Part shown: piece after piece, positions 9,496 through 64,000 of the stretch
Layout: every line of letters starts with the position of its first letter
How positions within the stretch are numbered: the stretch's first letter is position 1
NCBI GenBank assembly: GCA_002309855.1
Contig: DBYD01000035.1
Span: 9,054-73,053 of the forward strand
DNA: 64,000 bases
Source of the DNA: Bacteroidales bacterium UBA1195
GTDB lineage: Bacteria > Bacteroidota > Bacteroidia > Bacteroidales > WCHB1-69
Direction of reading: 5' to 3'
Translations under genes and position numbers: made by a program
Notes under the pieces: model-generated
Database searches by the model: none
Seen by the model: only the letters and a program-made list of their open reading frames with translations
Told to the model about the DNA's origin: nothing

Positions 9496-10553
9496 TGCGG
9501 ATTATAGTTGTGCGACCTTTAGAGAGAGGTTTGTATAATCGATTTATTGGCGAAGCTCATGAACCACACAAAAAAGACTGGATTCATCTTTTGAACATAT
9601 TGGAGTTTAAAGGGAAATATGAAAACATAGTAAATCTTTTACATTCCATGCCTGTTTGTCTTCGTGAATCAAAATCTTTGGCAGACCGTGATGAAAACCG
9701 TGATAAAGACAGCATTATAGATCTGTTGGGAGCATATTGTCCCAATCAAAACTATGACAATCCTCACATTGAATTGTATTTGACCGATATTGATGTTTCG
9801 ACCAAAAACAATGAGGAACATTTCAAATGGCTTTTTACCAAAGTGCTTTTTCACGAATTGGCTCACGCTGCTTTGGATATTTATATGTTGAATCGTAATC
9901 GTCAAGAGGCAGAAAGAGTTTCTTATAAAACAGAATTTGACCGGTGGCGTGAAGAGTCAATGGCGAATGCCGTCGCACTCCGGATAATAAAAGATTTTGG
10001 TAACAAAGATTTCTATGATTATGCCAAAAATTATATGCAAACACAACCAAAAGAGTATGCACTCGGCGTTTTGATGGAAGACTTTGGTTATTGGGATTTC
10101 AGAAGCGTTTTTCAAGCAAAGGAAGATGGAGTAAATTCCACCCTACAACAGGAATGGCTGAAGTATGTTAAAGGCACTCCTGACTGGGAGGGGATGAAAA
10201 AATGGAATGAATTATTGAATACTCAGTATGTCTATATCTTTGAAGGAAAATATTATTCATCGGAAGAAGTATTGGTATTCGACATTGTAAACAAGGTGCT
10301 TTCTGACTATGTGAACAAAAATGGAAATAAAATGCCATTTAACACATTTAGTTCACTTTTCCCATATATCAGAACTGGTGCAGAGATGTCATACGAACCG
10401 ACACAAAAGGTCATAGGAGATAGCCGATATAAAGAGTTAAGATTAGTTGATGGCAATTATTCCTTGTATTATTTCTGGGACAATGGTTCTCTACATGCGT
10501 TTGTGGATGCTAAAAAACTCCATATCAATATAATTGAATACAAGAATTACTAA
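9459..10553 (+). CDS. Hypothetical protein with an HExxH metallopeptidase-like core (ImmA/IrrE- or SprT-like) and an unknown C-terminal domain
   Basis: It has LFHELAHAALD with a downstream EESMANAVAL, which fits an HExxH plus distal Glu arrangement. GC is about 35 percent. The start is uncertain because the next in-frame ATG is at 9648. A strong terminator follows the ORF. Confidence 0.4.
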   Translation: MYISFEINVHFVLRIIVVRPLERGLYNRFIGEAHEPHKKDWIHLLNILEFKGKYENIVNLLHSMPVCLRESKSLADRDENRDKDSIIDLLGAYCPNQNYDNPHIELYLTDIDVSTKNNEEHFKWLFTKVLFHELAHAALDIYMLNRNRQEAERVSYKTEFDRWREESMANAVALRIIKDFGNKDFYDYAKNYMQTQPKEYALGVLMEDFGYWDFRSVFQAKEDGVNSTLQQEWLKYVKGTPDWEGMKKWNELLNTQYVYIFEGKYYSSEEVLVFDIVNKVLSDYVNKNGNKMPFNTFSSLFPYIRTGAEMSYEPTQKVIGDSRYKELRLVDGNYSLYYFWDNGSLHAFVDAKKLHINIIEYKNY

Positions 10554-10606
10554 AAATCCTCATCCTTGTGGCCTATGCCGTAGCCAAGGCCAAGCAGTAA
10601 ACGTAA

Positions 10607-10644
10607 GGGACATTCTGCAACAGGCAGGGTGTCCCCTTTTTTTT
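10607..10644 (+). terminator. Rho-independent terminator
   Basis: The stem is GGGACATTCTGC / GCAGGGTGTCCC (12 bp including 2 G-U pairs) with a 5-nt loop. It is followed by C and then T8. Confidence 0.75.
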
Positions 10645-10899
10645 GCCCCCCGTAAAAAATACCTTTTTGCCGACATGATATCCGGGCGGGACGGAATGTC
10701 CAAAGCTGGAACCGGATTTCCACAGCTCTGAAAAAGGACACTAAAAATCACTGAATAAAATTTACTTTTAGTACAACTTTAAAAAAAAAGTATTCTGAAG
10801 GTGAAAAAAGGTTGTTTTTTGGTTAATTTTTGTGAGAAATCTGTTATATATGATTGCAATCAAAAACCAAAACATCAACTTTTTTCAAATCCAAATACA

Positions 10900-12540
10900 A
10901 TGCCTGTAACCAACCAACAAATCACCTTATTAGCCGCCATCGAGCGTGTCGCCACAAATGCCAAAGCATCGGAACTGGACGATCGGTTCTTCACAACGTG
11001 CAAGGAGGAACTGTCATATCTTGCCAACAGCTATGGAATCACCCCGTTGCAGGCCGCGCTCTTCTGTGTCTGCATGGAAAAGGGTCCGAATTACATTTAT
11101 TTCCACGATTTGGCATCCTATCTCAATCTCAACACTATTCGTATTCTTAGCTATGGTACCGACATCGACGCCCTTGTCCACCGCCGCCTGCTGCGCTACT
11201 GCGATACGAAAGACGAAGGCTCTATTGATGTGCCAGCTAAAGTCATCAAGGCCCTCAAACACAATGAGGTGTACCAGCTACCCAAACACACTGATTTGGA
11301 CGCCTGTGGTATGATGGAGTATATGAACATGTGGTTTGAAGACCTCCACGACGATGCCGTTTCCGCACGTGAGCTGCGCGAAGAGATGAAAGCCATGATT
11401 AATGATAACCCACAAGTCGGTCTCGCGCAGAAAGTCAAAACCCTCGACCTCAATGACGAAGACGTGCTGCTGCTGCTTTTCTTCTGCCACGAACTCATCA
11501 ATGACAATGATGACGACATTCGTTTCCATCGGCTCGAAGACCTCTTTGACAACATAATTGTCTTCAACCACGCCAAAAACCTCTTGCAACGTGGTGACCA
11601 TCCTCTTATGCAAAAAAAGCTGATTGAGCATCAATGCGTCAACGGCCTTGCCGACAACACCTGTTACAAGCTCACCGAACTGGCCAAGCGCGACCTGCTC
11701 GGCGAATTCAATATCAACATCGCCGATGAAAAGCTTGCCGATGTGCTGCTGTCTGACAGCATCACCGCCAAAGAACTCTTCTACAGCGAAAGTGTCAGCC
11801 GTCAGGTTGACGAATTGTCCGCGTTGTTGGACGCAGGGCAATACAAGCAAATTCGCGAGCGGATGAAACAGCGGGGGTTCCGTCAGGGATTCACCTGCCT
11901 TTTCCATGGCGGTCCCGGAACGGGAAAGACCGAGACTGTGTACCAACTGGCACGCCGCACGGGCCGTCAGGTGATGGTGGTTGATGTGCCGCAGATCAAG
12001 AGCAAATGGGTCGGCGAAAGCGAGAAGAACATCAAGGCGCTCTTTGACCGCTACCGTGCGCTGGTGGAGAAATCAGATGTGGCGCCCATTCTGCTTTTCA
12101 ACGAGGCTGACGCCATTATCGGCATCCGCAAGCAGGGGGCGGAAGATGCCGTTGACAAAATGGAGAACACCATCCAGAACATTATTCTGCAGGAGATGGA
12201 AAATCTTGACGGTATCCTTATCGCCACCACCAATCTGACTGAGAACCTTGACAGTGCCTTTGAGCGCCGCTTCCTCTACAAGATACGTTTTGACAAGCCT
12301 GATGCCACAGTGCGCAGCAAAATATGGCAGACAAAGATACCCGAATTGTCCGCGATGGATGCCGACACCATTGCCGGACGTTACAGTTTCAGTGGAGGCC
12401 AGATAGAGAATATTGCCCGGAAGTATACTGTCTTCAGCATCCTCCACGGTGAAACCGGATGCCCGCAAAGTGCCATTATAGAACTCTGTAACAACGAAAA
12501 AATAGCTGCAAATAATTCAAGAAAAATTGGTTTTTTATGA
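10900..12540 (+). CDS. Classic-clade AAA+ ATPase (CDC48/SpoVK/FtsH-like module) with a long N-terminal helical/wHTH-like region
   Basis: Walker A is GGPGTGKTE, Walker B is ILLFNEADAI, and sensor/second region of homology is ATTNLTENLDSAFERRF. The preferred start is ATG 10900 (MPVTNQQ). The ORF track starts at GTG 10801. Confidence 0.8.
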   Translation: MPVTNQQITLLAAIERVATNAKASELDDRFFTTCKEELSYLANSYGITPLQAALFCVCMEKGPNYIYFHDLASYLNLNTIRILSYGTDIDALVHRRLLRYCDTKDEGSIDVPAKVIKALKHNEVYQLPKHTDLDACGMMEYMNMWFEDLHDDAVSARELREEMKAMINDNPQVGLAQKVKTLDLNDEDVLLLLFFCHELINDNDDDIRFHRLEDLFDNIIVFNHAKNLLQRGDHPLMQKKLIEHQCVNGLADNTCYKLTELAKRDLLGEFNINIADEKLADVLLSDSITAKELFYSESVSRQVDELSALLDAGQYKQIRERMKQRGFRQGFTCLFHGGPGTGKTETVYQLARRTGRQVMVVDVPQIKSKWVGESEKNIKALFDRYRALVEKSDVAPILLFNEADAIIGIRKQGAEDAVDKMENTIQNIILQEMENLDGILIATTNLTENLDSAFERRFLYKIRFDKPDATVRSKIWQTKIPELSAMDADTIAGRYSFSGGQIENIARKYTVFSILHGETGCPQSAIIELCNNEKIAANNSRKIGFL

Positions 12541-12568
12541 TTCCCAAATTCAAATAAATTCAGAATTC

Positions 12569-13252
12569 ATGAAAGAACAGAAAGATTTTTCATTTTTACC
12601 ATTTGAAGATTACTCGAATTCACTGCTTTGTAAGTATTCAAAATCTTATAAAGCAAAAGTTTATGAATACACAAATTGCAGCAATCATAACTTGATTGTT
12701 GAGGGCTCCTTTAATAGATTATTGTCTCAAATGAAAGAAAAAGACTTTGCTATACTTACTGCATATAGAAGTACGTTGACGAAAAAAGAAAACATCATGC
12801 GAAATCGTAATCTTCGTGGTATTTTAAATGCTGATGAAATGGGAGTTCACCAATTGGTCGGTCATTGGAGGGAAAACCCTAATGGCAGTGATTATAGGGA
12901 TGCCGAAGAAAATGAATTGGTAGATGCTGTTGAACGTTCATACTTTGTCGCCAAACCGGATTCGATGCCATTTGAAAAATTTAAGGGATGTATCTTAAAA
13001 TGTCTCACAATGGATGGGCAAACACAAGATCCGGCAATTATTAGTAAAGGTGGTGATATTTATTGTTTGCATAATACAGGCAGTTTAGAAAAAATTGCAA
13101 AAAAAATATCATTAAACAAAATAAATCAAGCATATTCCCAATATATAAAACATTTGGACATACCATTTGTGTTTGAAGGGGTTGAAAGACCCGGTTCAAA
13201 TATGGGTTTGTTTGCGTATGAAAAGAATGGTTTTAAAACCGTTACACTATAA
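12569..13252 (+). CDS. Hypothetical protein (228 aa), partner of the AAA+ ATPase
   Basis: ATG 12569 lies 28 nt after the ATPase stop on the same strand, and GC is low. I recognise no domain. The notable block is DFAILTAYRSTLTKKENIMRNRNLRGIL...VGHWRE...VERSYFV. Confidence 0.35.
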   Translation: MKEQKDFSFLPFEDYSNSLLCKYSKSYKAKVYEYTNCSNHNLIVEGSFNRLLSQMKEKDFAILTAYRSTLTKKENIMRNRNLRGILNADEMGVHQLVGHWRENPNGSDYRDAEENELVDAVERSYFVAKPDSMPFEKFKGCILKCLTMDGQTQDPAIISKGGDIYCLHNTGSLEKIAKKISLNKINQAYSQYIKHLDIPFVFEGVERPGSNMGLFAYEKNGFKTVTL

Positions 13253-13356
13253 AATTCCGAAGATACCAGTACGGACGGTCAGGGACGTGGCATAAATATG
13301 GACGGTACACAATATATTCAGAATAATTAAGTTATAACATTAAAAATCTTTGAAAT

Positions 13357-13782
13357 ATGAGATATATAAGGACAATTCAAGAAATGATTGATGAGCAGGT
13401 ATCTGAAACTATTAGCCGTATCGATCCGATAACAGAAATGGCAGTGCCGTTGAATAAATACAAAGTACGTGTCGATGGATTAAGATTTCATCTTGTCAGG
13501 AACTGGTGCCTATGCAGATATTGCCAGTTGTTTGATACGATGAACATATGTTTCAAGCATTGGATAAATGAATTGGAAGCGGTCATTGAAAAGTTCCTCC
13601 GCCTCCATCTCCATCCGCGAGAAGGCGAACCATTTCTTTCCGAGGTCTTTCAGCGAGGCACCGATGTGATAGACGGAAGAGCAAATTTTTTTTTTTCGTC
13701 CACGCGGAATCTGTGTCGGGATTTTGAATACTTTTGCAGTGTCATAACCGATAATTTGAAACTACTGATACGGCTTGTGTGA
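13357..13782 (+). CDS. Hypothetical small protein, probably chimeric: an AT-rich 5' two-thirds reads through a GC-rich patch containing a T11 tract
   Basis: The ORF is real up to about 13595. The remaining 3' third overlaps the repeat copy at 13595-13636 and an unstarted minus-strand reading frame (..VYHIGASLKDLGKKWFAFSRMEMEAEE..). Confidence 0.3.
   Translation: MRYIRTIQEMIDEQVSETISRIDPITEMAVPLNKYKVRVDGLRFHLVRNWCLCRYCQLFDTMNICFKHWINELEAVIEKFLRLHLHPREGEPFLSEVFQRGTDVIDGRANFFFSSTRNLCRDFEYFCSVITDNLKLLIRLV
13595..13636. repeat. Copy A of an approximately 42-bp imperfect direct repeat (38/42 identical to 14365-14406)
   Basis: The sequence is TCCTCCGCCTCCATCTCCATCCGCGAGAAGGCGAACCATTTC, aligned by eye with copy B. 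Confidence 0.85.
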
Positions 13783-13831
13783 AAACAGTTTGAAGATTTG
13801 GTGTGATTAAATGGAATAAAAAGTCAATGCA

Positions 13832-14029
13832 ATGGGAAAACAATATAAAAAAGAAAAAAACAAGGTGATTGTGGTTTCGGAGCCGGAACCTGCTTATGGT
13901 TTGGCAAAGGGCTGCCAGGTTCCTGTTACAGATTTGTCTGAAGAGGAGTTGCTGTCAGGCACAATGTCGGTTGACGCCTATTTTGATGAATTGATTTCAT
14001 TGGTGCGTAAGGACTATGAAAATCTATGA
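13832..14029 (+). CDS. Putative type II antitoxin (65 aa)
   Basis: This small ORF overlaps the downstream ParE/RelE-like toxin gene by 14 nt and has an acidic C-terminal half. Confidence 0.5.
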   Translation: MGKQYKKEKNKVIVVSEPEPAYGLAKGCQVPVTDLSEEELLSGTMSVDAYFDELISLVRKDYENL

Positions 14030-20530: not shown

Positions 20531-23500
20531 ATGGAAGCACACGACAACGAACTAATTGAAAAACTGGAGCTTTTTGTCCGCAAATACTACAACAACATTG
20601 CGGTGCGCGGCTGCATTCTGTTTGCTGCCATCCTGCTGGCACTTTTCCTGATTGTATCCCTTTTTGAATACTACACCTACAGCAATACTATTGTCCGCAC
20701 CTGCATATTCTACGGATTTCTGATTTTGAATGCCGGCGTGCTCACAGGCATGATCCTGCTGCCGCTATTCCGCAAGGCCGGCTGGCTGAAAAGGCTAAGT
20801 TATGAGGATGCGGCCCGTCTGATCGGGAAACATTTTCCTGAAATCGATGACAAACTGCTGAACACACTGCAACTTCACGAGCTCGCCGAACAGAATCCCG
20901 AAGGATACAGCCTGCTGGATGCCGCAATTGAACGTAGAATCGAGCAGATGAAACCTTTCACCTTCCATAAGGCGATTGACTTCCGCAAAAACCTGAAATA
21001 TCTTAAATATGCGCTGCCACCCGCCCTGATAATCCTTCTGCTTCTTGGCTGGAACAGCGAGCTCTTCACCGGACCGACCCGACGGATCATTCACCATCAG
21101 ACCGCATATGAAAAGCCGGCCCCATACCAGTTTGAATGGGAGAATCCGGTTTCGGAACTGTTTCAGGATGAAGATCTACAAATCACGGTGAAAATCAAAG
21201 GCAAAGAGACTCCAGAGGAGGCATTTGTCAATGCTGACGGCGTACGGTACCGGATGGAGCGGGTTTCAACCGTGGAATTCCGCTACAAGCTGAAAAGGCT
21301 CCGCAACGATACCCGTCTCCACTTTGAGAGTGAGGAGGTGAGGTCACCGGAACATCACATACGTGTATTGCCAAAACCCAACCTGTTGCATTTCAGCGTC
21401 ACGCTGGATTATCCGGCCTACCTGCACAAAATCACCGAAACGATGGACAACAACGGAAACATAACAGTTCCGCAAGGCACACACATCACCTGGAAATTCC
21501 ACACAGCAAATGCCGATGAAGTGCAGATCACCACTGGCACACAGCAAATCCGCATTCCATGCAACAATAATCTCTGCAGCTACGGCGTACAGGCCAGAAA
21601 CGATTTCTCATATCAGGTTTCAAGCAGCAACAGTTATCTGAACAACCGTGACTCCCTGCAGTATTTTGTCAGTGTCATTCCTGATGCATTTCCTGAAATC
21701 CATGTGGAGAGGAGTCAGGATTCGCTCTATTTCGACCGATTTTATTTCAAAGGCGGAATACGCGACGACTACGGCTTCCGGAAACTGCAGTTTGTCAGTT
21801 TTGTCATGAAGGACAAGGACACGGTGCGCCCTGCCACAGCAACCCCAATCCCCTTCCAACCGGACGCCACCGCCCAACCCTTCTATTTCTATTTTGACGC
21901 ACAGACGCTCTCCCTCTCATTAGGGGAAAGTCTGCACTATTATTTTGAAGTCTGGGACAATGATGGGGTGAACGGCAGCAAACGGAGCCGCACCGGCGAA
22001 ATGACATTCAAACTTCCCACAGCCGATGAGATCAGGGAGCAGTCGGAGCAGGTGAAGCAGGAAACCAAAGAGGGTCTCTCCCAAATGATGAAGGAAAATA
22101 GTGAGATTTTGCAACGCATTGAGGCTCTTAAGAAAAAAATGATAGGACAGAAGGAGGCCGGTTGGCAGGAAAAAAAGGAACTGGAAGAGCTGATCAGGCA
22201 ATGGCAGGAGCTGAAAAAGGAGACAGAAAATGCCATTGAAGCGCAAAAAAGGCAGCAGGAACTGGAAAACCAATATGAAAGCCTCTCCGATGAAATTCTT
22301 CAGAAGCAGGAGGAGCTGCAGCAGCGAATGGACGAACTATTCTCCGATGAAATGAAGCAGACCATGATGGAAATCCAGCGTATGATGGAAAAGGAGATGG
22401 ACAAGGAGAAGTTGAATGAGGCACTGGAGAAAATCCGTATGTCCACTGAGGAACTGAACAAACAGCTGGACATGGATCTGGCCCTCTTCAAGCGTTTGGA
22501 GGTGGAGCAGAAAATGGAAAACATTCTGGAACAGGCGGACAAGCTGGCCGAAAAGCAGCTGGAACTCGCCAAGGAGGCCGCCAAGAACGATGCGGACAAC
22601 AAAGCAATCGAACAGAAACAGCAGCAGCTCAAGAATGAATTCAACCAATTGATGGAGGATGCGGAAAGTCTGCGTGAACTAAATAACAAACTGGAACAGC
22701 CTTTCAAAATTCCAGACCAGAAAACATTGGAAAACAACATCCGGAAGGAGATGCAGCAGGCAATGGAACAGTTGCAGAAGCAGAACGGCAAACAGGCCGC
22801 GCCGCACCAGCAGAAGGCAGGCGAACAGATGCAGCAGATGCAGCAGAAGATGGAGTCCGATTTTCAGGCGAGCATGGACAACAGCGCGGCAGAGGATGTG
22901 CAAAGCATCCGCAGGATATTGGACAACATAGTAAAAGCCTCATTCCAACAGGAAAAGCTGATGAAGCGGCTTGCAGGAATGAACATCCAGGACCCAAATG
23001 CCAAAGAGGTGATCCGCGACCAGTTCACGTTAAAGGAGAACCTCCGCATGATTGAAGACAGCATCGCAGCCATCGCCAAACGCCAACAGGCGGTGAAACC
23101 GTTTGTCTATAAACAAATCACCCAAATCAACAACGCCCAGCGTCAGATCCTTTCGGACATCGGACAGACACAGGAACAGGTGTACTATTATTATCGTCCG
23201 CGCAACTTCAACAACGCCGTATCAAAACAACAGTATGTCATGACATCCTTGAACGACTTGGCCCTGATGCTCGCCGAATCGATGACAAACATCCAGCAGC
23301 AGGGGGCAAAAGGCGGTAACTCATGCAAGAGCGGCCAATGCAAGCAGGGAAGCAGCAGCGGTGGGAACAAGCCAAAGGACATGAAATCGCTGCGTGAAAT
23401 GCAGGAACAGCTCAACAAACAGTTGGAGGAGATGCGCAAGCAACAGGGCGGACAGCCCTCCAAACAGGGGCAGACAGGCAAAAAACAGGGGCAGACAGGC

Positions 23501-23929
23501 AACCAGAGCGAGCAGTTCGCCCGTATGGCGGCCCGTCAGGAGGCCATACGCCGCATGATGCAGGACAAGCTCTCCCAGTTACAGAAGGAGGGGCGCCAAG
23601 CTGAGGCCGGCAACGTGCAACGGATGATGAAGGAGATGGAGCAGACCGAAAAGGAGCTGGTCAACAAAATCCTGAACCAGGAAACTATTAACCGCCAGCG
23701 CGACATAACCACCAGGATGCTGCAATCCGAAAGAGCGGAAATGCAGCGGGAAAAGGACGATACCAGAGAATCCAAACAGGGTCGCGAGCTCCAGCGCACT
23801 CCGCCGCCGGAATGGATCAACCGGCAGAACCAACGGCAGCAGCAGACAGAGATGTACCGGACTGTTCCGCCAAGCATGACGCCGTTCTACAAGCAGAAGG
23901 CCAACCAATATTTTTATCATTTCGAATAA
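20531..23929 (+). CDS. Large membrane-anchored coiled-coil protein (DUF4175-like)
   Basis: It has N-terminal TM helices followed by a ~600-aa Q/E/K-rich coiled coil. Its stop TAA overlaps the next ATG (TAATG). Confidence 0.4.
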   Translation: MEAHDNELIEKLELFVRKYYNNIAVRGCILFAAILLALFLIVSLFEYYTYSNTIVRTCIFYGFLILNAGVLTGMILLPLFRKAGWLKRLSYEDAARLIGKHFPEIDDKLLNTLQLHELAEQNPEGYSLLDAAIERRIEQMKPFTFHKAIDFRKNLKYLKYALPPALIILLLLGWNSELFTGPTRRIIHHQTAYEKPAPYQFEWENPVSELFQDEDLQITVKIKGKETPEEAFVNADGVRYRMERVSTVEFRYKLKRLRNDTRLHFESEEVRSPEHHIRVLPKPNLLHFSVTLDYPAYLHKITETMDNNGNITVPQGTHITWKFHTANADEVQITTGTQQIRIPCNNNLCSYGVQARNDFSYQVSSSNSYLNNRDSLQYFVSVIPDAFPEIHVERSQDSLYFDRFYFKGGIRDDYGFRKLQFVSFVMKDKDTVRPATATPIPFQPDATAQPFYFYFDAQTLSLSLGESLHYYFEVWDNDGVNGSKRSRTGEMTFKLPTADEIREQSEQVKQETKEGLSQMMKENSEILQRIEALKKKMIGQKEAGWQEKKELEELIRQWQELKKETENAIEAQKRQQELENQYESLSDEILQKQEELQQRMDELFSDEMKQTMMEIQRMMEKEMDKEKLNEALEKIRMSTEELNKQLDMDLALFKRLEVEQKMENILEQADKLAEKQLELAKEAAKNDADNKAIEQKQQQLKNEFNQLMEDAESLRELNNKLEQPFKIPDQKTLENNIRKEMQQAMEQLQKQNGKQAAPHQQKAGEQMQQMQQKMESDFQASMDNSAAEDVQSIRRILDNIVKASFQQEKLMKRLAGMNIQDPNAKEVIRDQFTLKENLRMIEDSIAAIAKRQQAVKPFVYKQITQINNAQRQILSDIGQTQEQVYYYYRPRNFNNAVSKQQYVMTSLNDLALMLAESMTNIQQQGAKGGNSCKSGQCKQGSSSGGNKPKDMKSLREMQEQLNKQLEEMRKQQGGQPSKQGQTGKKQGQTGNQSEQFARMAARQEAIRRMMQDKLSQLQKEGRQAEAGNVQRMMKEMEQTEKELVNKILNQETINRQRDITTRMLQSERAEMQREKDDTRESKQGRELQRTPPPEWINRQNQRQQQTEMYRTVPPSMTPFYKQKANQYFYHFE

Positions 23930-56438: not shown

Positions 56439-56939
56439 CTACAGCAGTGCCAACGCGATGTGTGCGCAGGCCTCCGCATCGGCAAGCGCGTGATGGTGGT
56501 TCTCAAGGTTATAGCCGCAAGCGGCGGCGACTGTGTGCAGCTGGTGGTTCGGCAGCAGGCGTCCGAAATGGCGGCGCGAGGCGCGGCAGGTGCAATAAAA
56601 TTTGTAATCAGGATAGTCCATCTGATAGACCCTGAACACAGCTTTCAGGCAACCCTCGTCAAAGGGGCTGTTGTGCGCCACTAACGGCAGCCCCTCTATC
56701 AACGGCTCAATCTGCCGCCAAACGTACGGGAACACCGGCGCGTTGTCGGTATCCTCATGCGACAGGCCGTGCACCTGCTGGCAGAACCAGGCGTAATAAT
56801 TGGGTTCGGGCTGTATCAGGCTGTAGAATGTGTCGGTGACAATGCCGTTGCGCACAACAACGATGCCAACGCTGCACACGCTGCACGGATTCCCGTTGGC
56901 CGTCTCGAAATCTATCGCTGCGAAATTGTTCAGCATCAT
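56439..56939 (-). CDS. DEDDh 3'-5' exonuclease (DnaQ/Pol III epsilon-like)
   Basis: The motifs are ExoI AIDFETAN, ExoII VAHNSPFDEGCL and ExoIII HHALADAEAC. It is translationally coupled to the WYL gene by a 4-nt overlap. Confidence 0.85.
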   Translation of the reverse strand: MMLNNFAAIDFETANGNPCSVCSVGIVVVRNGIVTDTFYSLIQPEPNYYAWFCQQVHGLSHEDTDNAPVFPYVWRQIEPLIEGLPLVAHNSPFDEGCLKAVFRVYQMDYPDYKFYCTCRASRRHFGRLLPNHQLHTVAAACGYNLENHHHALADAEACAHIALALL

Positions 56940-57856
56940 TCCCTCCCTTTCCTATACAGCGCGGACATGCCACGGATCTCCTCGGCCATGGACTTACGCA
57001 GCGATAGCGGCTCAAGCACCTCAACGGCGGAACCATGCGAAAGAAGCTCCTGACGGAAATCGAAGGTGGGTTTCAGCCGGTAGGAGAAGAGCGAATAGGT
57101 CTCGTTACGCTCCAACTCCTGCTGCGAGGCGTGCAGCGGCAGCGAACGGAAATAGTTCGCCTGAAACGCCTTAACCTTCAGCACAACCCGCTTCACCTCC
57201 AGCTCATCATCAGCAATGATACCAAAACAGCAGCTGAAAAAATCCTCCGCGTCAAAGTTTTTCGGATACAGGAATGTTTCCGTGGAGATATCCATATTTT
57301 CCATCCGGTCCAACGCAAAAATGCGAAGAGTATGGTTTCCGTATTTTCCAAGCAGGTACCAGCGCCTGCGGAACATCTTAAGGGCATACGGCTCAAAATT
57401 GTAATAATGCACCGCCTCCGAACTCCAATATGGCCTGTAGTCGAACATTATCATGCAGTTGTTCCGCATCGCCTCCAGAATGTCCGAAAGAAATGATTTC
57501 GAGGAGGGCTGCTCCTCCAACAGGATGCGGCTGCGCAACGCACCGCACATGTTGATGCTGTTGTTGACCGAAACCGTCTCCAACATCCATTTCCGGAAAC
57601 CGGACAGATCCTTCATTTCCGCCCTGTCCGCAATGTAATAGGCGTTGTCGGATTTGCGGCAGGCTATCTCCACGCCGAACACATCGGCAATCTGCTCCCG
57701 ATGGTTCTGGAAGGTCCGCCATGCATAGGATTCCCCACCGGACATTTCTGTCCGCTCCCACCTGTCATTTATCTCCGAAAAGGTTATGCCCCTGTCCCCC
57801 TCTTTTGAGACAGTGTCTATCAGCCAGATGTATTTTTTTATCAGTTCCGAGACCAT
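56936..57856 (-). CDS. WYL-domain transcriptional regulator (wHTH-WYL-WCX architecture)
   Basis: It has an N-terminal wHTH-like segment and a RRWYLLGK WYL signature. Confidence 0.75.
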   Translation of the reverse strand: MVSELIKKYIWLIDTVSKEGDRGITFSEINDRWERTEMSGGESYAWRTFQNHREQIADVFGVEIACRKSDNAYYIADRAEMKDLSGFRKWMLETVSVNNSINMCGALRSRILLEEQPSSKSFLSDILEAMRNNCMIMFDYRPYWSSEAVHYYNFEPYALKMFRRRWYLLGKYGNHTLRIFALDRMENMDISTETFLYPKNFDAEDFFSCCFGIIADDELEVKRVVLKVKAFQANYFRSLPLHASQQELERNETYSLFSYRLKPTFDFRQELLSHGSAVEVLEPLSLRKSMAEEIRGMSALYRKGRE

Positions 57857-57993: not shown

Positions 57994-58066
57994 AAAAACA
58001 CAATTTTTCGGAATTGTATTCCGAATTTTTTTATAATTTTCGGAATTGTATTCCGAATTTTCGTAT
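57994..58066. repeat. 73-bp perfect direct repeat, copy 1 (contains two TTCGGAATTGTATTCCGAA palindromes)
   Basis: It is identical base-for-base to 58982-59054. Confidence 0.95.
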
Positions 58067-58076
58067 TATTCATCCT

Positions 58077-58104
58077 GTAGAGACGGTGCATGCACCGTCT
58101 CTAC
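58077..58104. repeat. REP-like 28-bp perfect palindrome GTAGAGACGGTGCATGCACCGTCTCTAC, copy 1, followed by half-sites GCACCGTCTCTAC / TCACCGTCTCCAC
   Basis: Read directly from the sequence. It lies 3' of the RAYT gene. Confidence 0.9.
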
Positions 58105-58172
58105 ATTATTATTTTGCACCGTCTCTACATTGTTTTCGTCACCGTCTCCACATCGGATACATATCCTTGGTT

Positions 58173-58829
58173 TTATTCATCTACCCATTGTAACACATTG
58201 TTTTTAATATATTGTGCAATGTATTTCATTTCGGTTTCATTTCGTATTATATGGTCATGGAATCGTGTTTGCCACGCAAATGGGATTTTATTTTTGTTTG
58301 CGTATCTTGTCACTGCGGATTTGAAATTACCAATGGAAAACGACAATTTGTTTTTCTGCCGGGATATGTATTGCATCTGTTGGTTTACAAATTCATTTTT
58401 CCAACGGTTTGTTAAAACGTTCCGTTTATTTTGTTTTCCATTTATTGCCTTATTATAAATATAATCCGCACCACGTAGAGACGGTGCATGCACCGTCTCT
58501 ACATTATTATTTTGCACCGTCTCCACAACATCACCGAAACCACCTTGTACGACATCTGCATGAACAAAAACGACCATATGAATATGGTCCGGCATAACAA
58601 CAAACAATGGCACATCCGCATAACGATTGTGTTGTTTCATACATCCGATACATTGCTCCGCATATTTTCCCAATTCTGACAACTGCATTTCACCATCAGC
58701 AATCTCACCGAAATAATGCTGGCGAAACTGTGTACAAATGGTGACAAAATACGCCCCACCATTATAATCGTGCCATCCTGCACGTGCCGAAGGGATACGG
58801 TATCTGTCATAAAACCTGTTATCTGACAT
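58173..58829 (-). CDS. REP-associated tyrosine transposase (RAYT; IS200/IS605-like HUH Y1 enzyme)
   Basis: The HUH motif is MPDHIHMVV. The C-terminal WQTRFHDHIIRNETEMKYIAQYIKNN carries the catalytic-Tyr helix. Three REP-like palindromes are associated with the gene. Confidence 0.75.
   Translation of the reverse strand: MSDNRFYDRYRIPSARAGWHDYNGGAYFVTICTQFRQHYFGEIADGEMQLSELGKYAEQCIGCMKQHNRYADVPLFVVMPDHIHMVVFVHADVVQGGFGDVVETVQNNNVETVHAPSLRGADYIYNKAINGKQNKRNVLTNRWKNEFVNQQMQYISRQKNKLSFSIGNFKSAVTRYANKNKIPFAWQTRFHDHIIRNETEMKYIAQYIKNNVLQWVDE
58475..58502. repeat. REP-like 28-bp palindrome, copy 2, inside the RAYT coding sequence
   Basis: The stretch 58475-58526 matches 58077-58128 with 1 mismatch in 52 nt. 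It translates in frame as ..VVETVQNNNVETVHAPSLRG.. Confidence 0.9.
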
Positions 58830-58913
58830 AAATAAAATTCATTTTGTTCATTTAATATATTAACGGAGGATTGTCCGTTATAATGTATTAACGTTGGTAT
58901 TATTTGCGATATT

Positions 58914-58941
58914 GTAGAGACGGTGCATGCACCGTCTCTAC
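58914..58941. repeat. REP-like 28-bp palindrome, copy 3 (5' of the RAYT gene)
   Basis: The palindrome is identical to the other copies. It is followed by the degenerate half-site GCACCGTCCATAC. Confidence 0.9.
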
Positions 58942-58981
58942 AATATTTCCGGCACCGTCCATACAACATCCGTGACGGAAC

Positions 58982-59054
58982 AAAAACACAATTTTTCGGA
59001 ATTGTATTCCGAATTTTTTTATAATTTTCGGAATTGTATTCCGAATTTTCGTAT
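58982..59054. repeat. 73-bp perfect direct repeat, copy 2; its 3' end merges into the TAtaTTTG -7 box of the downstream ATPase promoter
   Basis: It is identical to 57994-58066. Confidence 0.95.
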
Positions 59055-59075
59055 ATTTGCAAAAACAAAACAGAG

Positions 59076-60233
59076 ATGATTCAACGGTTATTGGACAAAG
59101 ATAGACTTTTGGAAGACAGCACCTTCCTGTTTGGTGCGAGGCAGACTGGGAAATCCACGCTGCTGTTGGAACTGTTTCCTGATGCGCATTTTTATGATTT
59201 ATTGGAGAGCAACACCTTTGAACGGCTCCAGAGAAATCCCTCCCTGTTAAGGCAGGATTTGGAGATGTGCGAACCCGACACGCTGGTCATCATTGACGAG
59301 GTGCAGTCTCTTCCCATACTGCTGAACGAGGTGCAATGGCTGATGGTACGCAAAGGGCTCCGGTTCATTTTGAGCGGCTCAAGCGCACGCAAACTCAAAC
59401 GCGGAGGGGCCAACATGCTTGGAGGCAGGGCGTTGCAAACCAACCTCTACCCTCTTACAAGCGCAGAGGTTCCCGACTTCGACATTGTAAGGGCTGTAAA
59501 TCAGGGCATGATTCCAAGGCATTATCTGGCCGATTCAAGAAAATACTGGCAGATGCTGCAGGCTTACGTGGCGGTTTATCTGCGCGAAGAGATTAAGGCG
59601 GAGGCGCTGGTGCGCAACCTCTCAACCTTCACCCGTTTTCTGGAGGCCGCCGCACTTACCAACGGCGAGATGGTCAATTTCAGCAACATTGCGCAGGATT
59701 GCGGAGTGGACTCGAAAACCGTTGCCGGATATTTCTCCATTCTGGAGGAGACGCTAATCGGCCACATGATTCCCGCGTTTTCAAAAACAGTGAAACGCAA
59801 GCTGCGCCAGGCTCCACGCTTCTATTATTTTGATGTTGCTGTCACTAACTACCTGCTTGGCCGACGCTCAATGGTTCCCGGTTCCGCCGATTTCGGCCAT
59901 GCATTCGAGCATTTTGTGATTCAGGAAATCATTGCATATTTGGGTTATCACCGGATGACAAACGCACTCTCCTATTGGCATACATACAATGATTATGAAG
60001 TGGATGCGATATTAGGGGATGCACAAGTCGCCATAGAGATCAAATCAGCGGATGAGGTGCAGTCCCGACATCTGCACGGGTTGAAAGCCTTCAAGGAGGA
60101 GCATCCGCAAGCCCGTCTGATAGCGGTTTCACTTGACACGAACCCACGGCGGACCAACAACGTTGAAGTCTGGCCGGTCAAGGCGTTCCTGGAACAGCTG
60201 TGGGCCGGAAAGATTTGGACCGAAAACCTGTGA
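59076..60233 (+). CDS. Orphan ATP-binding protein (AAA_14 + DUF4143 type)
   Basis: It has Walker A GARQTGKSTLL and Walker B VIIDEVQ, plus a C-terminal PD-(D/E)xK-like DUF4143 segment (..EVDAIL...IEIK). The start is ATG 59076 (MIQRLL). Confidence 0.7.
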   Translation: MIQRLLDKDRLLEDSTFLFGARQTGKSTLLLELFPDAHFYDLLESNTFERLQRNPSLLRQDLEMCEPDTLVIIDEVQSLPILLNEVQWLMVRKGLRFILSGSSARKLKRGGANMLGGRALQTNLYPLTSAEVPDFDIVRAVNQGMIPRHYLADSRKYWQMLQAYVAVYLREEIKAEALVRNLSTFTRFLEAAALTNGEMVNFSNIAQDCGVDSKTVAGYFSILEETLIGHMIPAFSKTVKRKLRQAPRFYYFDVAVTNYLLGRRSMVPGSADFGHAFEHFVIQEIIAYLGYHRMTNALSYWHTYNDYEVDAILGDAQVAIEIKSADEVQSRHLHGLKAFKEEHPQARLIAVSLDTNPRRTNNVEVWPVKAFLEQLWAGKIWTENL

Positions 60234-60282: not shown

Positions 60283-61131
60283 TCATTTTTTTACGTTCCA
60301 CGAAATGCAGTTCAATGCGCCACCTTTTCTGACGGCTTCAAGAGCAAAAATGCCTACGATATCGCAACATGGCAAAGCTTTTTCGATTTGCTCCAACGCC
60401 TGACAGTCCTCCTCCGTCCCCAACTGCGGCACAAGAACCAACTTTCCGACCTGCAGGAAATTGATGTAGCACCAACTTCGCTCACGATGTCGTTTTACTT
60501 TGTATTTCAACGTAATGACTTCAAACTTTTTATCCAAAACCTTTCGGAAACGGTAGTAATAATGCCTTGAAAAATCCTGATAGTTTGTCAGCAGGATTTT
60601 CCCTTCGCCAACATAGTGTAAAATGCCATCGCTATGGCCATACCTTTCACCGTCCCACGGCAAGAACAGGATGTCGCACCGGAAGGCGTCGCGCAGAATC
60701 CTCTCCACTTCGGCAGTGCTTTTGTCATTGTTTTCCACAAAGATCTTGTCTGTCATCACAACGGTGTCGCCGCACTTCACCACGTTGCCGCCGTCAAGAA
60801 CGAGGTCAATGTCTTTGCGGAATTTGAGCATACCGCCAAAATGGTTTTCTTCCGCAAGGAACACCTTTTCGGGGTCGGTTTGAAGACGACGATGATAAGC
60901 CGTATCTTGCAGATAATCTGGTGTATATTTGTAAAACACCAAACGCTCTTCTTCAACCTGTATGGGCATGAAGTCGCGACACCAGATGTCTTTAGTTTCA
61001 GAAAGATAGCTGTACGGAATGCCGTGGTTCCGCAACACTTCCGTGATTTGCGCATTCAGCTGAGGGCATTTCTCCGGCAACATACCGGAGAAATAGACGG
61101 TGTTGGTGAGGGAATCGGTGGTCATTTGCAA
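60283..61131 (-). CDS. Pentein-fold guanidino-group-modifying enzyme (short agmatine-deiminase/PAD_porph-like, 282 aa)
   Basis: The motifs are IWCRDFMP, LDGGNVV, GHSDGILHYV, CYINFLQVGKLVLVP and C-terminal GGALNCISW with a candidate nucleophile Cys. It overlaps the upstream gene by 10 nt. Confidence 0.65.
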   Translation of the reverse strand: MQMTTDSLTNTVYFSGMLPEKCPQLNAQITEVLRNHGIPYSYLSETKDIWCRDFMPIQVEEERLVFYKYTPDYLQDTAYHRRLQTDPEKVFLAEENHFGGMLKFRKDIDLVLDGGNVVKCGDTVVMTDKIFVENNDKSTAEVERILRDAFRCDILFLPWDGERYGHSDGILHYVGEGKILLTNYQDFSRHYYYRFRKVLDKKFEVITLKYKVKRHRERSWCYINFLQVGKLVLVPQLGTEEDCQALEQIEKALPCCDIVGIFALEAVRKGGALNCISWNVKK

Positions 61132-61775
61132 AATCTTTTATAATACCTTGTTATACTCTTTGGCGTTTTTTTTACATAATCCCAAGTTGCATTTTCAAAT
61201 TTTTCTTTACAATTATCTTTGCATGTATATTTTTCAAATAATTTCTGATCATAAAAACACAATGGCACATCTTTTAGATCTTTTTCTTTATATGTAATTC
61301 CATATCTTTCCATCGGATTTTTACAGAGTTCACTTCCCATATTTCCATTATCTTCTTTTAACTCAAGCATAGCTTTCTGTTCAATACAAACATTCAACAG
61401 CTCAAGCATACATACAGATGGTCCTGTAATATATCTTCCTTGACTATCTTTCAAACTTCGAATCAAAATTCCTCCAAACTTACCATCTGCAAACTTACTA
61501 TCAAAACAAACATCAACACCGCTATAATGAAAGAATAAGGTGCCAGCATCTTTGTTCGTTCGGGGGTAAGTTTTTTCATTCCATTTTTGATTAAAATTGT
61601 CTTTATCATAATAATAAAACTCTATTTCCGCAAAATAATACTTAATTGCGCCACATTCAATGCAGTAGTTTTTAAACAAATCCTCCGCAATTTCTGCGCA
61701 CTTCTTTTGAAATTCATGCGGATCCCCATTTAATCCATCAAATGGATTTGTCAATTTTTCCTTTAATGTTTCCAT
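61122..61775 (-). CDS. AAG/Mpg-fold (3-methyladenine DNA glycosylase-like) protein with a Cys-rich C-terminal extension
   Basis: Three blocks match the Mpg pattern by eye. YYFAEIEFYYYD corresponds to IVETEAY. TYPRTNKDAGTLFFHYSGVDVCFDS corresponds to T.R...pG..YVY..YG...C.N. FGGILIRSL....ITGPSVCMLELL corresponds to avLIRA.eP...GP..l. GC is about 33 percent. Confidence 0.5.
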   Translation of the reverse strand: METLKEKLTNPFDGLNGDPHEFQKKCAEIAEDLFKNYCIECGAIKYYFAEIEFYYYDKDNFNQKWNEKTYPRTNKDAGTLFFHYSGVDVCFDSKFADGKFGGILIRSLKDSQGRYITGPSVCMLELLNVCIEQKAMLELKEDNGNMGSELCKNPMERYGITYKEKDLKDVPLCFYDQKLFEKYTCKDNCKEKFENATWDYVKKTPKSITRYYKRFCK

Positions 61776-61892
61776 AATAACTCATGTTTTAAAATTTTCT
61801 GCAAAGGTACAGCATTTCGGCGAAAACGGAAGGGGAATTTTTGTTAAAATTTGTTAAAATTTTCGAAAAAAGTTATTAATATTCTCCCCCCC

Positions 61893-61996
61893 CTTATTTT
61901 GCCGGAAACGGTGCTTTTGGTGCAATTGCGGCAAAATAGCTGGACTTATTTTGCCGGAATTGATATTTTTTGTATATTTGCGGCAAAATTAATTTG
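61893..61996. promoter_or_regulatory. Two tandem 52-bp units, each containing the inverted repeat ATTTTGCCG-N22/23-CGGCAAAAT; the second ends in a TAtaTTTG -7 box
   Basis: CTTATTTTGCCGGAA is at 61893 and 61945. TTGCGGCAAAAT is at 61926 and 61978. A C8 homopolymer lies immediately upstream at 61886-61893. Confidence 0.5.
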
Positions 61997-62008
61997 AATA
62001 GTTTAACA

Positions 62009-63445
62009 ATGAATATTATTGGAAGACAATCTGTAATAAAAAGATTGGAACAGGTTTACCTGTCTGGAAAATCCGAATTGGTTGCCATATTTGGGAGAAG
62101 AAGGGTCGGCAAGACATTTCTCATACGGGAACTTTATCAGGAGGAATGGTGTTTCTACCATACTGGGCTTTCCCCCATCGAAACAGAAAACGGAAAGTTC
62201 ACCACATTAGGGTTGCAGTTGCAGGGATTCGCATCCTCGATGCGCCAATTCGGCGCCACAATTGAAAAAACACCTGACAATTGGCTGGAAGCCTTTGACA
62301 TGCTCACCGGACTGCTGAAAATGCACATCCGCAAAAAACGCTGCGTGGTGTTCATTGACGAACTGCCATGGATGGATACCGAAAGATCCGGATTCATGAC
62401 CGCCTTTGAACATTTTTGGAACGGCTGGGCCTCAGCGCAGAAAAACATCATGCTGATAGTCTGCGGTTCCGCAACCTCATGGATGGAGGACCGGCTCATC
62501 AACAACAAAGGCGGGCTTTATGACCGTGTAACCTGCGAAATCCATCTTGAACCGTTCAAACTGTCCGAATGTGAGGAATATTACCGCAGAAAGGGCATCG
62601 TCATGGACCGATATGACCAGCTGCAATGCCATATGATCATGGGAGGCATCCCGTTTTACATGGACGGTCTGCAAAAGGGGAACAGCCTTGCGCAGAACAT
62701 TGACATTCTTTTCTTCGACAAACACGCCCAGCTGCGGAACGAATTTGAGCGGCTGTTCGCCTCGCTGTTCACCAACCATGAAGATTGCATAAAGGTGGTG
62801 CGCCTGCTTGCAGACCGGCGTGAAGGCTTCACAAGAAAGGAGATAGCGGAAAAGACTGGGATACCCTACGGCGGCGGCCTGACAAAACTGCTGCAATCGC
62901 TCAAAGCCAGCGATTTCATTACCGACTACACACCATACAACCGTTCAACCCGGCAGCAATGCTACAAACTTGTCGACAATTTCTGCCTCTTCTATCTTAA
63001 ATTCATTGAAAATGTGAAAAACCTGTCACCCACTTTCTGGCAGGACAACCTGCTGTCGCCCAAGCTCAACGCATGGCGCGGATTCGCTTTCGAAAATGTA
63101 TGTTTCGAGCATTCCGACAAAATCAAGGCAGCTCTCGGAATCAGCGGGGTGCATACCGAAATCGCCCCGTGGCGGAGCATGGAATCCTCTCCGGCACACC
63201 AGATTGACATGGTCATAGACCGCGCTGACAGGATTGTGAACATCTGCGAAATGAAATACTCCAATGCGGAATACACCATCACCAAGGCATACGACCAGGA
63301 ACTGCGTGAAAAGGTACAGGCTTTCATTGAAGAGACCCACAGCCGTAAAACGCCACACCTGACGATGGTCACCACCTACGGTTTGAAAAGCAACGAATAT
63401 TCCAACCGAATCCAGCGGAGCCTGACATTGGACTGCCTGTTCTGA
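62009..63445 (+). CDS. Orphan ATP-binding protein (Arch_ATPase/DUF234 type), paralogue class of 34874-36016
   Basis: It has Walker A GRRRVGKTFL and Walker B VFIDELPW, and a wHTH-like segment (REGFTRKEIAEKTGI). The C-terminal DUF234-like segment has nuclease-like residues. The start is ATG 62009 (MNIIGRQ). Confidence 0.7.
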   Translation: MNIIGRQSVIKRLEQVYLSGKSELVAIFGRRRVGKTFLIRELYQEEWCFYHTGLSPIETENGKFTTLGLQLQGFASSMRQFGATIEKTPDNWLEAFDMLTGLLKMHIRKKRCVVFIDELPWMDTERSGFMTAFEHFWNGWASAQKNIMLIVCGSATSWMEDRLINNKGGLYDRVTCEIHLEPFKLSECEEYYRRKGIVMDRYDQLQCHMIMGGIPFYMDGLQKGNSLAQNIDILFFDKHAQLRNEFERLFASLFTNHEDCIKVVRLLADRREGFTRKEIAEKTGIPYGGGLTKLLQSLKASDFITDYTPYNRSTRQQCYKLVDNFCLFYLKFIENVKNLSPTFWQDNLLSPKLNAWRGFAFENVCFEHSDKIKAALGISGVHTEIAPWRSMESSPAHQIDMVIDRADRIVNICEMKYSNAEYTITKAYDQELREKVQAFIEETHSRKTPHLTMVTTYGLKSNEYSNRIQRSLTLDCLF

Positions 63446-63557: not shown

Positions 63558-64000
63558 CTACCGTCCGAACAACCTTCTGAAAAACGCCTTCAAGCCCGGT
63601 TCGTTCCGTGGTGCACCTTTGAACGATGTCATGAACCCGATAAGGTTTTCCGTGACCCCGCCCATCAGCTCATCGGCCTTGGAAAATGCCTTGTTGACAG
63701 TCAGATATTTGTAGTTGCGCAGAATGAACTGGTTGTTAAAGAGGAAGAGCGCGTCCGTCTGCTTTGACATATTCCGCACGCCTGCGAAAGCCTGTTCCCG
63801 CTTATGCTCCCCCTCGAAATCGAACGGCATGGTCACAATGCCGACGGTGGTTATGCCCATCTTACGCGATTCGCGGGCTATGACTGGAGCCGCACCGGTG
63901 CCGCAGCCCCCGCCCATGCAGGAGACGATGAACAGCACCTTCGGACTGTCCGCCAACAAACCGCGTATCTCCGTGATTTTCTTTTCCGCCTCACTTTCAG
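63558..64000 (-). CDS. FtsZ/tubulin-like GTPase-domain-only protein with a C-terminal amphipathic tail (partial; N-terminus outside the window)
   Basis: It has the tubulin signature CMGGGCGTGAAPVIA followed by ITTVGIVTMPFDFEGEHKR (compare FtsZ GMGGGTGTGAAPVVA...LTVAVVTKPFNFEGKKR). The frame stays open to nt 64000. The protein ends about 25 aa after the H7-equivalent, with ..GLKAFFRRLFGR. Confidence 0.7.
   Translation of the reverse strand, partial: ESEAEKKITEIRGLLADSPKVLFIVSCMGGGCGTGAAPVIARESRKMGITTVGIVTMPFDFEGEHKREQAFAGVRNMSKQTDALFLFNNQFILRNYKYLTVNKAFSKADELMGGVTENLIGFMTSFKGAPRNEPGLKAFFRRLFGR

Follow-up and report, generated by a model that had tools for sequence, protein, structure and literature searches.

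A cassette-swapped Mpg/AAG-like gene linked to a short pentein gene in Bacteroidales: a candidate two-gene conflict module

What might a protein resembling a DNA glycosylase and a protein resembling a guanidino-group hydrolase do together, when their genes overlap and travel as a pair? The question is raised by a locus near the end of a 64,000-nucleotide (nt) stretch of Bacteroidales bacterium UBA1195 (GenBank assembly GCA_002309855.1, contig DBYD01000035.1, positions 9,054–73,053 of the forward strand; this whole stretch is referred to below as the window). On the minus strand, an open reading frame (ORF) of 217 amino acids (aa), here p217 (61122..61775), encodes a putative N-glycosidase that is very probably a divergent Mpg/AAG-superfamily protein, and is followed by a gene (60283..61125, minus strand) for a 280 aa pentein matching PF04371 in N-terminally truncated form. 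The former is the variable and the latter the conserved component of the module; in databases they carry the names ‘hypothetical protein’ and ‘agmatine deiminase family protein’. Literature searches returned no published description of the pair, in line with the first-pass annotation of this DNA, which knew of no described system with this pairing. Each protein stands for a new and divergent branch of a known enzyme superfamily, and their combination and population genetics are undescribed as far as found. The answer favoured here, possible though short of probable, is that the pair is a conflict module in which p217 would recognise or excise an unusual base and the pentein would hydrolyse the guanidino/amidino group of that base, with phages or other mobile DNA probably the target; catalysis, complex, substrate and conflict role are all inferred from the lines of evidence that follow.

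Linkage of the two genes was assessed from both sides. A pattern scan for p217 in one genome per species gave 80 loci, 58 of which have an adjacent pentein gene, mostly downstream (often with a 4 nt overlap), upstream in about 15 cases (gap of about 70–80 nt), convergent in 2 and fused in 1. A reverse scan with pentein patterns found 550 genomes; in the best 78 loci, which were examined, a p217-type gene lies directly upstream in 68, and 3 others end at a contig edge. Five of the seven remaining loci have, upstream of the pentein, a 221–230 aa ORF of a more divergent p217 subfamily (KEIEVYY...VHRNELQ...GLDFVVSD...YLIRSA...VGPNKVL), which was seen only with speed filters off. Co-occurrence in other genomes, on which the initial pairing proposal depended, is evident in these independently retrieved sets of loci from species-representative genomes, and the pairing is far beyond chance. 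Exact-protein look-ups also place the two genes, with the 4 nt overlap, in unrelated contexts (L002, L005–L008), and four fusion proteins are known: P0343 (582 aa), P0390 (491 aa; loci L111/L223, 6 contigs), P0499 (532 aa) and that of locus L268 (514 aa). Hosts are nearly all rumen or gut Bacteroidales, the pair occurring in hundreds of species, and cultured carriers include Xylanibacter brevis ATCC 19188 and Dysgonomonas sp. PF1-14. The coupled translation, the changes in gene order and the occasional natural fusions suggest a shared substrate for the two proteins, or an action of one on the other.

Transcription order on the minus strand is p217 first and pentein next, and the TGA of p217 shares letters with the ATG of the pentein in an ATGA stop/start overlap indicative of translational coupling (61122..61125, minus strand; ...TGC AAA TGA CC...). 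A 282 aa pentein with a 10 nt overlap (60283–61131) had been described initially; this version stems from a mechanical ORF list and begins at a TTG codon. Because pentein homologues are 280 aa (100 % coverage), as is the gene called on the identical contig L001, the start is placed at the ATG at 61125 and the overlap is corrected to 4 nt. The same −4 spacing is present in many homologous loci. All of the residue blocks quoted in the first-pass annotation are found in the translations: FAEIEFYYYD, YPRT, AGTLFFHYSGVDVCF, GGILIRSL and ITGPSVCMLELL in p217, and WCRDFMP, LDGGN, GHSDG and GGALNC in the pentein.

Comparison of close relatives reveals a second property of the locus. In L011/L009, L180 and L109 the flanks are 90–95 % identical to the window and the pentein gene 90–93.5 %, and the upstream region together with the first ~165 nt of p217 is 78–82 % identical. 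Against L011, L009 and L180, DNA similarity ends at 61610, just past the AEIEFYY codons, and resumes at the pentein start, which leaves an allele-specific, swapped body of p217 (61132..61610, minus strand) without blastn similarity to these three relatives. At the protein level, the penteins of the window and L011 are 89 % identical and the p217s 41 %, the latter over the N-terminal 138 aa only. Such an abrupt loss of similarity inside p217, between flanks that are 90–95 % identical, indicates allele replacement rather than drift. The pattern is general: among 127 natural p217–pentein pairs compared, 64 % of the locus pairs whose penteins are 85–95 % identical show less than 30 % coverage-scaled identity between their p217 proteins. 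The family of p217 falls into at least four subfamilies, common to which is the catalytic core only, and these subfamilies are shared among distant penteins. Since the post-catalytic part of p217 is exchanged as a cassette between genomes, in at least four subfamilies, it is marked as the putative specificity-determining part of the protein, apparently under diversifying selection. The locus is, in addition, a clean natural case of within-gene cassette replacement with its breakpoint at a catalytic motif.

Base composition differs between the two genes. In the window, p217 has a GC content of 0.307 (0.24 at third codon positions, GC3) and the pentein 0.471 (GC3 0.57), compared with 0.518 for the window as a whole, so that the earlier label of a ‘low-GC pair’ applies to p217 alone. 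The GC content of p217 is below that of its pentein in 127 of 127 pairs, at any host GC content (medians 0.327 versus 0.441, with a locus median of 0.451). This step might reflect a common pool of alleles, selection acting on expression, or silencing. The cassette swapping, the universal GC step and the optional Sel1 and acidic partners described below had gone unmentioned in the first-pass annotation.

p217 has no direct match in Pfam, NCBIfam, PADLOC, PHROGs or the PDB sequences, and a profile of its family (alignment A1) found nothing among PDB sequences. The family is nevertheless a large one, with 416 clusters at 90 % identity and, on profile search (E ≤ 1e-3), 1,466 clusters at 50 % identity; whatever its function, it is a large Mpg-superfamily branch that Pfam does not cover. 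An AlphaFold2 (AF2) model of p217 is confident, with a predicted local distance difference test score (pLDDT) of 92 and a predicted template modelling score (pTM) of 0.89. The unusual GC3 of p217 and its lack of a direct database match might be taken to mean that p217 is not a real gene, or that its adjacency to the pentein is fortuitous. The number of clusters, their conserved motifs and the confident model oppose the former; linkage in more than 120 loci, together with the fusions, opposes the latter, and fortuitous adjacency is ruled out by the locus census. The likelihood of this explanation is close to negligible.

Across 133 diverse members of the family, E52, Y54, G86, D88, G101, G102 and P119 are invariant, and E50, F53, Y70, R72, G78, H83, S85, F91, R106, G118 and R157 nearly so. 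The AEIEFYY codons (61611..61631, minus strand; residues 49–55) contain E52 and Y54, which align with the Mpg catalytic Glu and stacking Tyr, E46 and Y48 of Bacillus subtilis Aag, both of which are invariant between the B. subtilis and human enzymes in the Mpg alignment. The GGILIRS codons (61455..61475, minus strand; residues 101–107) align with the Mpg (A/C)VLIRA motif, R106 (at least 90 % conserved) falling on R104 of B. subtilis Aag, the Arg of the LIRA motif. The human AAG counterparts are, in our own numbering, presumably E125 and Y127 for E52 and Y54, and R182 for R106.

Homology over the whole domain was assessed by profile–profile alignment. As references, sequences of human AAG and B. 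subtilis Aag were used, confirmed by PF02245 (E 2.5e-62 and 4.3e-62) and, for the human protein, against PDB 7xfh; 80 Mpg genes were gathered from genomes, and the Mpg alignment held 81 sequences. With hhalign, a narrow 71-sequence p217 profile gave no significant match to single AAG sequences or to the Mpg alignment (E 0.15–0.41). A 133-sequence profile reached E 1.4e-4, and a 200-sequence profile to which the divergent subfamilies had been added reached a probability of 83–90 % and E 1.9e-6 to 9.4e-6; significance was thus attained only with the broader profiles. The alignment spans 145–152 colinear columns and residues 17–189 of the 196 aa B. subtilis enzyme, which is almost the whole Mpg domain. 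The real comparison scored 45.4, against 22.2 ± 3.0 (maximum 29.7; z ~7.7) for 40 block-shuffled Mpg alignments, 10.1 for a reversed alignment and 12–17 for unrelated alignments. PF02245 is also the sole recurrent Pfam family among the 133 members (five weak matches, best E 2.3e-4), and single members match three regions of an Mpg hidden Markov model, N-terminal, middle (GPxK) and C-terminal (RIGI...RF), in the right order; ten representatives of the divergent subfamilies gave no PF02245 match.

Several results count against this assignment. p217 itself has no PF02245 match at E up to 0.1 and so lies below the Pfam gathering threshold. Compared with the PDB by Foldseek, the p217 model had no significant match, and no AAG structure was among the 50 matches listed; the best match (E 0.14, TM 0.2) was to formyltransferase C-terminal-type domains, which we take to belong to the same SCOP fold class as AAG. 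Solved AAG structures include 1bnk, 1ewn, 1f4r and 3qi5. The AAG/Mpg fold proposed at the outset is supported, as superfamily homology, by the profile–profile alignment. On balance, p217 is very probably a highly divergent member of the Mpg/AAG superfamily, outside PF02245 as defined, and as it retains the catalytic ExE-Y and LIR(S/A) motifs its most likely function is that of an N-glycosidase, which would flip a nucleotide out and recognise it.

The likeness to Mpg/AAG proteins (PF02245; human AAG, B. subtilis YxlJ/Aag) extends over ~150 colinear columns and pairs AEIEFY of p217 with VETEAY of Mpg (ExE-Y), GGILIRS with VLIRA/LLRAL, ITGPSVC..L with NGPGKLT.AL, and R.GI...FY with PRIGI...RFW; length and pI range are also similar. 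Unlike those proteins, p217 fails the Pfam model and has no solved AAG structure among the Foldseek matches listed. Mpg is a conserved single-copy repair gene, whereas p217 is cassette-swapped, hypervariable, in an operon with or fused to a pentein, and known from sequence alone. Significant structural matches of the p217 model came only from BFVD (Foldseek), and are to two uncharacterised giant-virus proteins, Catovirus CTV1 A0A1V0SB56 and Hyperionvirus A0A3G5A9Y1 (E 4e-8 and 1e-7; TM 0.52–0.59), which differ from p217 in coming from eukaryotic viruses.

The pentein belongs to PF04371 (PAD_porph; E 2.5e-23, 83.2 bits compared with a gathering cut-off of 25 bits), matching profile positions 70–319 of 321. 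The first ~70 positions are absent, and the same N-terminal shortfall is seen in eight module-linked penteins from other genomes. Its nearest solved relatives by sequence are the agmatine deiminases 2jer, 6b10, 2ewo and 3hvm, aligned from about residue 40. The WCRD codons (60973..60984, minus strand; residues 48–51), with the first guanidinium-binding Asp, align with TWIRDF of Campylobacter jejuni 6b10; the GHSDG codons (60625..60639, minus strand; residues 163–167), with the catalytic His and second Asp, align with GHVDD of Enterococcus faecalis 2jer; and the GGALNC codons (60307..60324, minus strand; residues 268–273), with the nucleophilic Cys273, align with GGNIHC (2jer) and GSLHC (6b10). 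In 33 homologues W48-C49-R50, G163-H164-S165-D166-G167, G268, G269, N272 and C273 are invariant and D51 is conserved in at least 90 %. An AF2 model of the natural fusion P0390, the pentein half of which is 63 % identical to that of the window, matches agmatine deiminases first (best 6b10, E 1.7e-12; also 2ewo and 2jer) and then the Porphyromonas peptidyl-arginine deiminase (PPAD), DDAH and amidinotransferases, the E values for 6b10, 2ewo, 2jer and PPAD lying between 1e-12 and 1e-9. The pentein is, on these conserved residues, probably an active guanidino/amidino hydrolase of PF04371.

Its nearest named enzymes, agmatine deiminase (AguA; TIGR03380; 6b10, 2jer, 2ewo, 3hvm, 1vkp) and PPAD, share the PF04371 pentein fold and the catalytic Cys273, His164, Asp51 and Asp166. 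The pentein differs from them in being ~50–100 aa shorter and in having GGALNC in place of GGN/SxHC, and from AguA in its surroundings, the constant neighbour being a p217-type gene. These comparisons bear on a housekeeping or metabolic explanation, in which the pair would act in an agmatine/arginine pathway, in salvage of guanidino/amidino bases, or in repair of guanidino-purine lesions (guanidinohydantoin), with the diversity of p217 due to drift. The annotation of the pentein as an agmatine deiminase family protein, the established role of AAG/Mpg proteins as repair enzymes, the fixed position of the pentein at one locus within the species group of the window, and the housekeeping genes that adjoin the pair in some genomes (DHFR and GCV_T in L002) are all as this explanation would have them. 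The scores are not: the pentein reaches 52.9 bits against the 381.8-bit cut-off of the agmatine deiminase model TIGR03380, and 52.0 against 483 for NF010070, and it lacks the N-terminal ~70 profile positions. Nor is the context, as no aguB, speA or agmatine antiporter/transporter is found among the 25 commonest Pfam families of 144 neighbour ORFs or in the annotated loci, and no queuosine (Q)/archaeosine pathway gene among the same 25 families; in the window and in 12 loci, the sequence upstream of the module gave no riboswitch match in Rfam. Drift does not account for an abrupt loss of DNA similarity inside p217 or for the same p217 subfamilies occurring with distant penteins, and cassette swapping is not normal for repair or metabolic enzymes. 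The metabolic explanation is thus decidedly unlikely. The specific role of canonical AguA is ruled out by the low scores, the missing N-terminal positions and the lack of an AguA gene context, in keeping with the first-pass annotation, which had noted that canonical agmatine deiminases are longer and pair with N-carbamoylputrescine amidase. Hundreds of ‘agmatine deiminase family protein’ entries are, by the same token, probably not agmatine deiminases.

The conflict module is favoured on two grounds. Fixed chemistry joined to a substrate-facing body that is replaced wholesale is typical of an arms-race specificity determinant, and sequence-diverse glycosylases have a precedent in phage defence. 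According to the searched text of two sources, DNA glycosylases of diverse sequence protect bacteria from phages whose bases are modified (PMC11078745; 10.1101/2025.10.29.685425). Brig1, as well as Dag1/Dag2 and related integron families, are there described as sequence-diverse glycosylases directed at phage-specific modified bases and often located in variable genome regions (PMC11078745; 10.1101/2025.10.29.685425). Unlike the present two-gene pair, known from genes alone, they are described as single proteins, and the searched text of these sources names neither an AAG/Mpg-type glycosylase nor a deiminase. A further parallel may be drawn with DarT–DarG and the type VII toxin–antitoxin system HepT–MntA, also two-gene units, in which one enzyme could undo or control the action of the other; neither has homology to p217 or the pentein, and HepT/MNT pairs adjoin the module in L009–L014.

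As proposed, p217 would flip out a non-canonical base or nucleotide, in all probability a purine, and recognise or excise it. This base or nucleotide would bear or release a guanidino/amidino function, to be hydrolysed by the pentein either in the flipped-out state or after release of the product. In other genomes, Sel1 repeats and a ~105 aa acidic domain could serve as adaptor or regulator. An archaeosine-type base, put forward in the first-pass annotation, would be one concrete candidate substrate, for which neither the 25 commonest neighbour families nor the riboswitch search gave direct support. A bolder form of the proposal, that the pair is a categorically new two-enzyme immune module in which a swappable AAG-fold N-glycosidase confers specificity and a constant pentein performs hydrolysis on the same target, is doubtful; candidate targets would be an amidine/guanidine-bearing base of Bacteroidales phages (archaeosine-type or another hypermodification) or the glycosylase itself, which would then be toxic and under the control of the deiminase. 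If true, a pentein and an AAG-fold enzyme would each have been shown to act in bacterial immunity for the first time. A conflict system of any kind would add the AAG/Mpg and pentein folds to bacterial immunity, and would point to guanidino/amidino modifications of nucleic acids or proteins in the phage world of rumen and gut Bacteroidales.

A number of observations weigh against a conflict module acting on a modified base. A p217-type gene occurs without a pentein in 22 of the 80 loci, several of them at contig ends, so that the pentein is not needed for every member of the p217 family. The AF2 model of the fusion P0390, built from a block alignment, has a pTM of 0.57 and a pLDDT below 50 for residues 164–214, the junction is disordered and there is no confident inter-domain interface; complex formation is accordingly argued for from genetics, as the fusion model gave no confident inter-domain geometry. 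The housekeeping neighbours in L002 have already been mentioned, and the census of 144 neighbour ORFs also holds tRNA synthetases and SHMT. In PADLOC-DB v2 no model matches p217 or the pentein at E up to 0.1, and a crude comparison of PADLOC families showed no enrichment among the neighbours (153 per 144 neighbours versus 57 per 34 control genes), the metric using family counts only and the 34 other genes of the window as control. Finally, the Sel1 repeats would fit a protein substrate better than a base.

This last point leads to the optional partners and to a protein-directed explanation. In roughly 30–45 % of modules the pentein is followed by a Sel1-repeat protein or has one fused to its C-terminus, and Sel1 repeats usually bind proteins. 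An acidic domain of ~105 aa (median pI ~4.2; motif ISPLMENAFSEPVLHKVVLSKIDFELPDEIWD...IPGAFLD, ISPLMENAF...IPGAFLD) is present in 24 loci (L100–L102, L117, L118, L148–L156, L192, L199 and others), encoded in some by a small ORF of its own between the two genes and joined in others to one or the other end of the pentein. Neither Pfam nor the PDB has a match to it, and in charge density it is reminiscent of DNA-mimic inhibitors, UGI among them. The locus in the window is a minimal two-gene form of the module, in which neither Sel1 repeats nor the acidic domain is present.

With such partners, the pentein could instead be a peptidyl-arginine deiminase to which Sel1 repeats recruit a protein substrate. 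In one version it would citrullinate R72 or R106 of a toxic AAG-like glycosylase and so neutralise it, as in a type-VII-like toxin–antitoxin or abortive-infection pair, with the acidic domain as a DNA-mimic brake; in another, p217 would be a sensor only and the deiminase the effector. True peptidyl-arginine deiminases do occur in PF04371, the fold matches include PPAD structures, and bacterial enzymes of this kind act on lasso peptides (10.1101/2020.07.16.207027). The optional Sel1 and acidic parts would each have a role in such a scheme, and the p217 arginines are conserved across all swapped subfamilies. A variant locus can be cited on the same side: in Bacteroides luti DSM 26991 (L174, 5103–6488) a short p217-like gene is followed, 3 nt later, by an ADP-ribosylglycohydrolase gene (PF03747, E 5e-74), which takes the place of the pentein and represents a second enzyme class acting on modified guanidino groups, here those of modified arginine. 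Against a protein target stand the minimal form in the window, which lacks both Sel1 and the acidic domain, and the rank of the agmatine deiminases, which are small-molecule enzymes, ahead of PPAD in sequence and fold matches. A reversal of citrullination is not known, which is awkward for an antitoxin, and a toxin and antitoxin in a single polypeptide would be unusual. The protein-directed explanation is unlikely overall.

A further explanation is that the pair writes a nucleic-acid modification, the pentein being an amidinotransferase that works through a thiouronium intermediate and the AAG-like subunit only flipping out the base, which is then amidinated and not excised. Amidinotransferases share the fold and chemistry of penteins, with SxtG and HsvA among the fold matches, and Bacteroides phages DAC16–23 and SJC03 carry a full-length PF04371 pentein. 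The closest relatives of the present pentein are hydrolases, however, and p217 keeps, as an invariant residue, the Glu with which a hydrolytic glycosylase carries out catalysis; restriction or reader genes were not seen in linkage, and the pair is very rare on viral contigs (~4 of 2.9 million IMG/VR contigs plus one unverified record). Searched separately, p217 has no match in a plasmid collection, and in a phage collection matches one unverified faecal contig only. A writer function is very improbable. The phage penteins themselves, which p217 does not accompany, come from large B. thetaiotaomicron phages: DAC19 (L267, MT074139.1, 106338–107390), DAC16/20/22/23 and SJC03. The DAC19 protein has 350 aa, covers profile positions 5–318, is annotated as hypothetical, and lies amid hypothetical genes, away from any p217-type gene. 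Such a protein may be the sign of a phage pathway of guanidino or polyamine type.

Returning to the conflict module, the genomic surroundings of the pair differ considerably between loci. A defence context is clear in L009–L019 and L157: the neighbours in L009–L014 include GmrSD, PLD, HepT/MNT and a pair formed by a WYL protein and a DEDDh protein, and L157 has an AbiC-like protein. Across all 144 neighbour ORFs the census is heterogeneous (ORF6N, AAA_14/ATPase_2, LRR_5, ECF sigma, NUDIX, Fic and MNT). In the window, PADLOC matches near the module are restricted to the two flanking ATPases, the WYL protein and the DEDDh protein. The ATPases (59034–60233 and 61970–63445) are DUF4143/AAA_14 and ATPase_2 AAA proteins that match the PADLOC candidates PDC-S01 (E 9e-55) and PDC-S27 (E 2e-197). 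L180, a relative with 93–95 % identity, has neither of them, and L011 has HepT/MNT and Sel1 genes in those positions. The ATPases are insertions relative to L180, and are therefore rejected as part of the unit: the position of the pair between two NTPases, pointed out in the first-pass annotation, is real as far as the NTPases go, and incidental. The p217–pentein locus is a hotspot that gains and loses ATPase, HepT/MNT and Sel1-type genes.

A WYL/WCX regulator gene (56936–57856) overlaps a gene for a DEDDh 3′–5′ exonuclease (56439–56939; PADLOC PDC-S48, E 2.5e-30); this WYL–DEDDh pair adjoins the module in L009–L014 and has 91–93 % DNA identity in L011 and L180. The variable locus has a conserved left border, formed by a short tubulin/FtsZ-like gene (63558–64000; Pfam Tubulin on the identical contig L001) with 95 % identity in L011, L180 and L109.

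Upstream of p217, the octamer TACCTTTG (61802..61809, minus strand) lies 27–34 nt from the ATG and is a candidate promoter, matching TAnnTTTG, which we take to be the consensus of the Bacteroidetes −7 promoter element. Farther upstream are two 45 nt direct repeats, at 61893–61937 and 61945–61989 (span 61893..61989, no strand assigned), which are 80 % alike; each holds the inverted repeat TATTTTGCCGGAA / TTGCGGCAAAATA, and the two are candidate operator sites. The region 61610–61989 is kept at 78–82 % identity in relatives, including L180, which is without the neighbouring ATPase.

Other features of the window lie apart from the module. A REP-associated tyrosine transposase gene is located at 58173–58829 (NCBIfam NF047646, E 5.7e-14, below the cut-off), in a unit (57994–59054) bounded by perfect 73 nt direct repeats (57994–58066 and 58982–59054). 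The palindrome GTAGAGACGGTGCATGCACCGTCTCTAC occurs three times in this unit, one copy lying within the coding sequence, where it encodes VETVHAPSL. Low-GC stretches at 9000–11000 and 12000–14000 (0.37–0.42, compared with 0.52 for the window) may be other acquired segments. At 20531–23929, a 1,132 aa ORF with an N-terminal membrane segment and a long Glu/Lys/Gln-rich, coiled-coil-like region accounts for the strong AT skew (0.35–0.44) at 22–24 kb.

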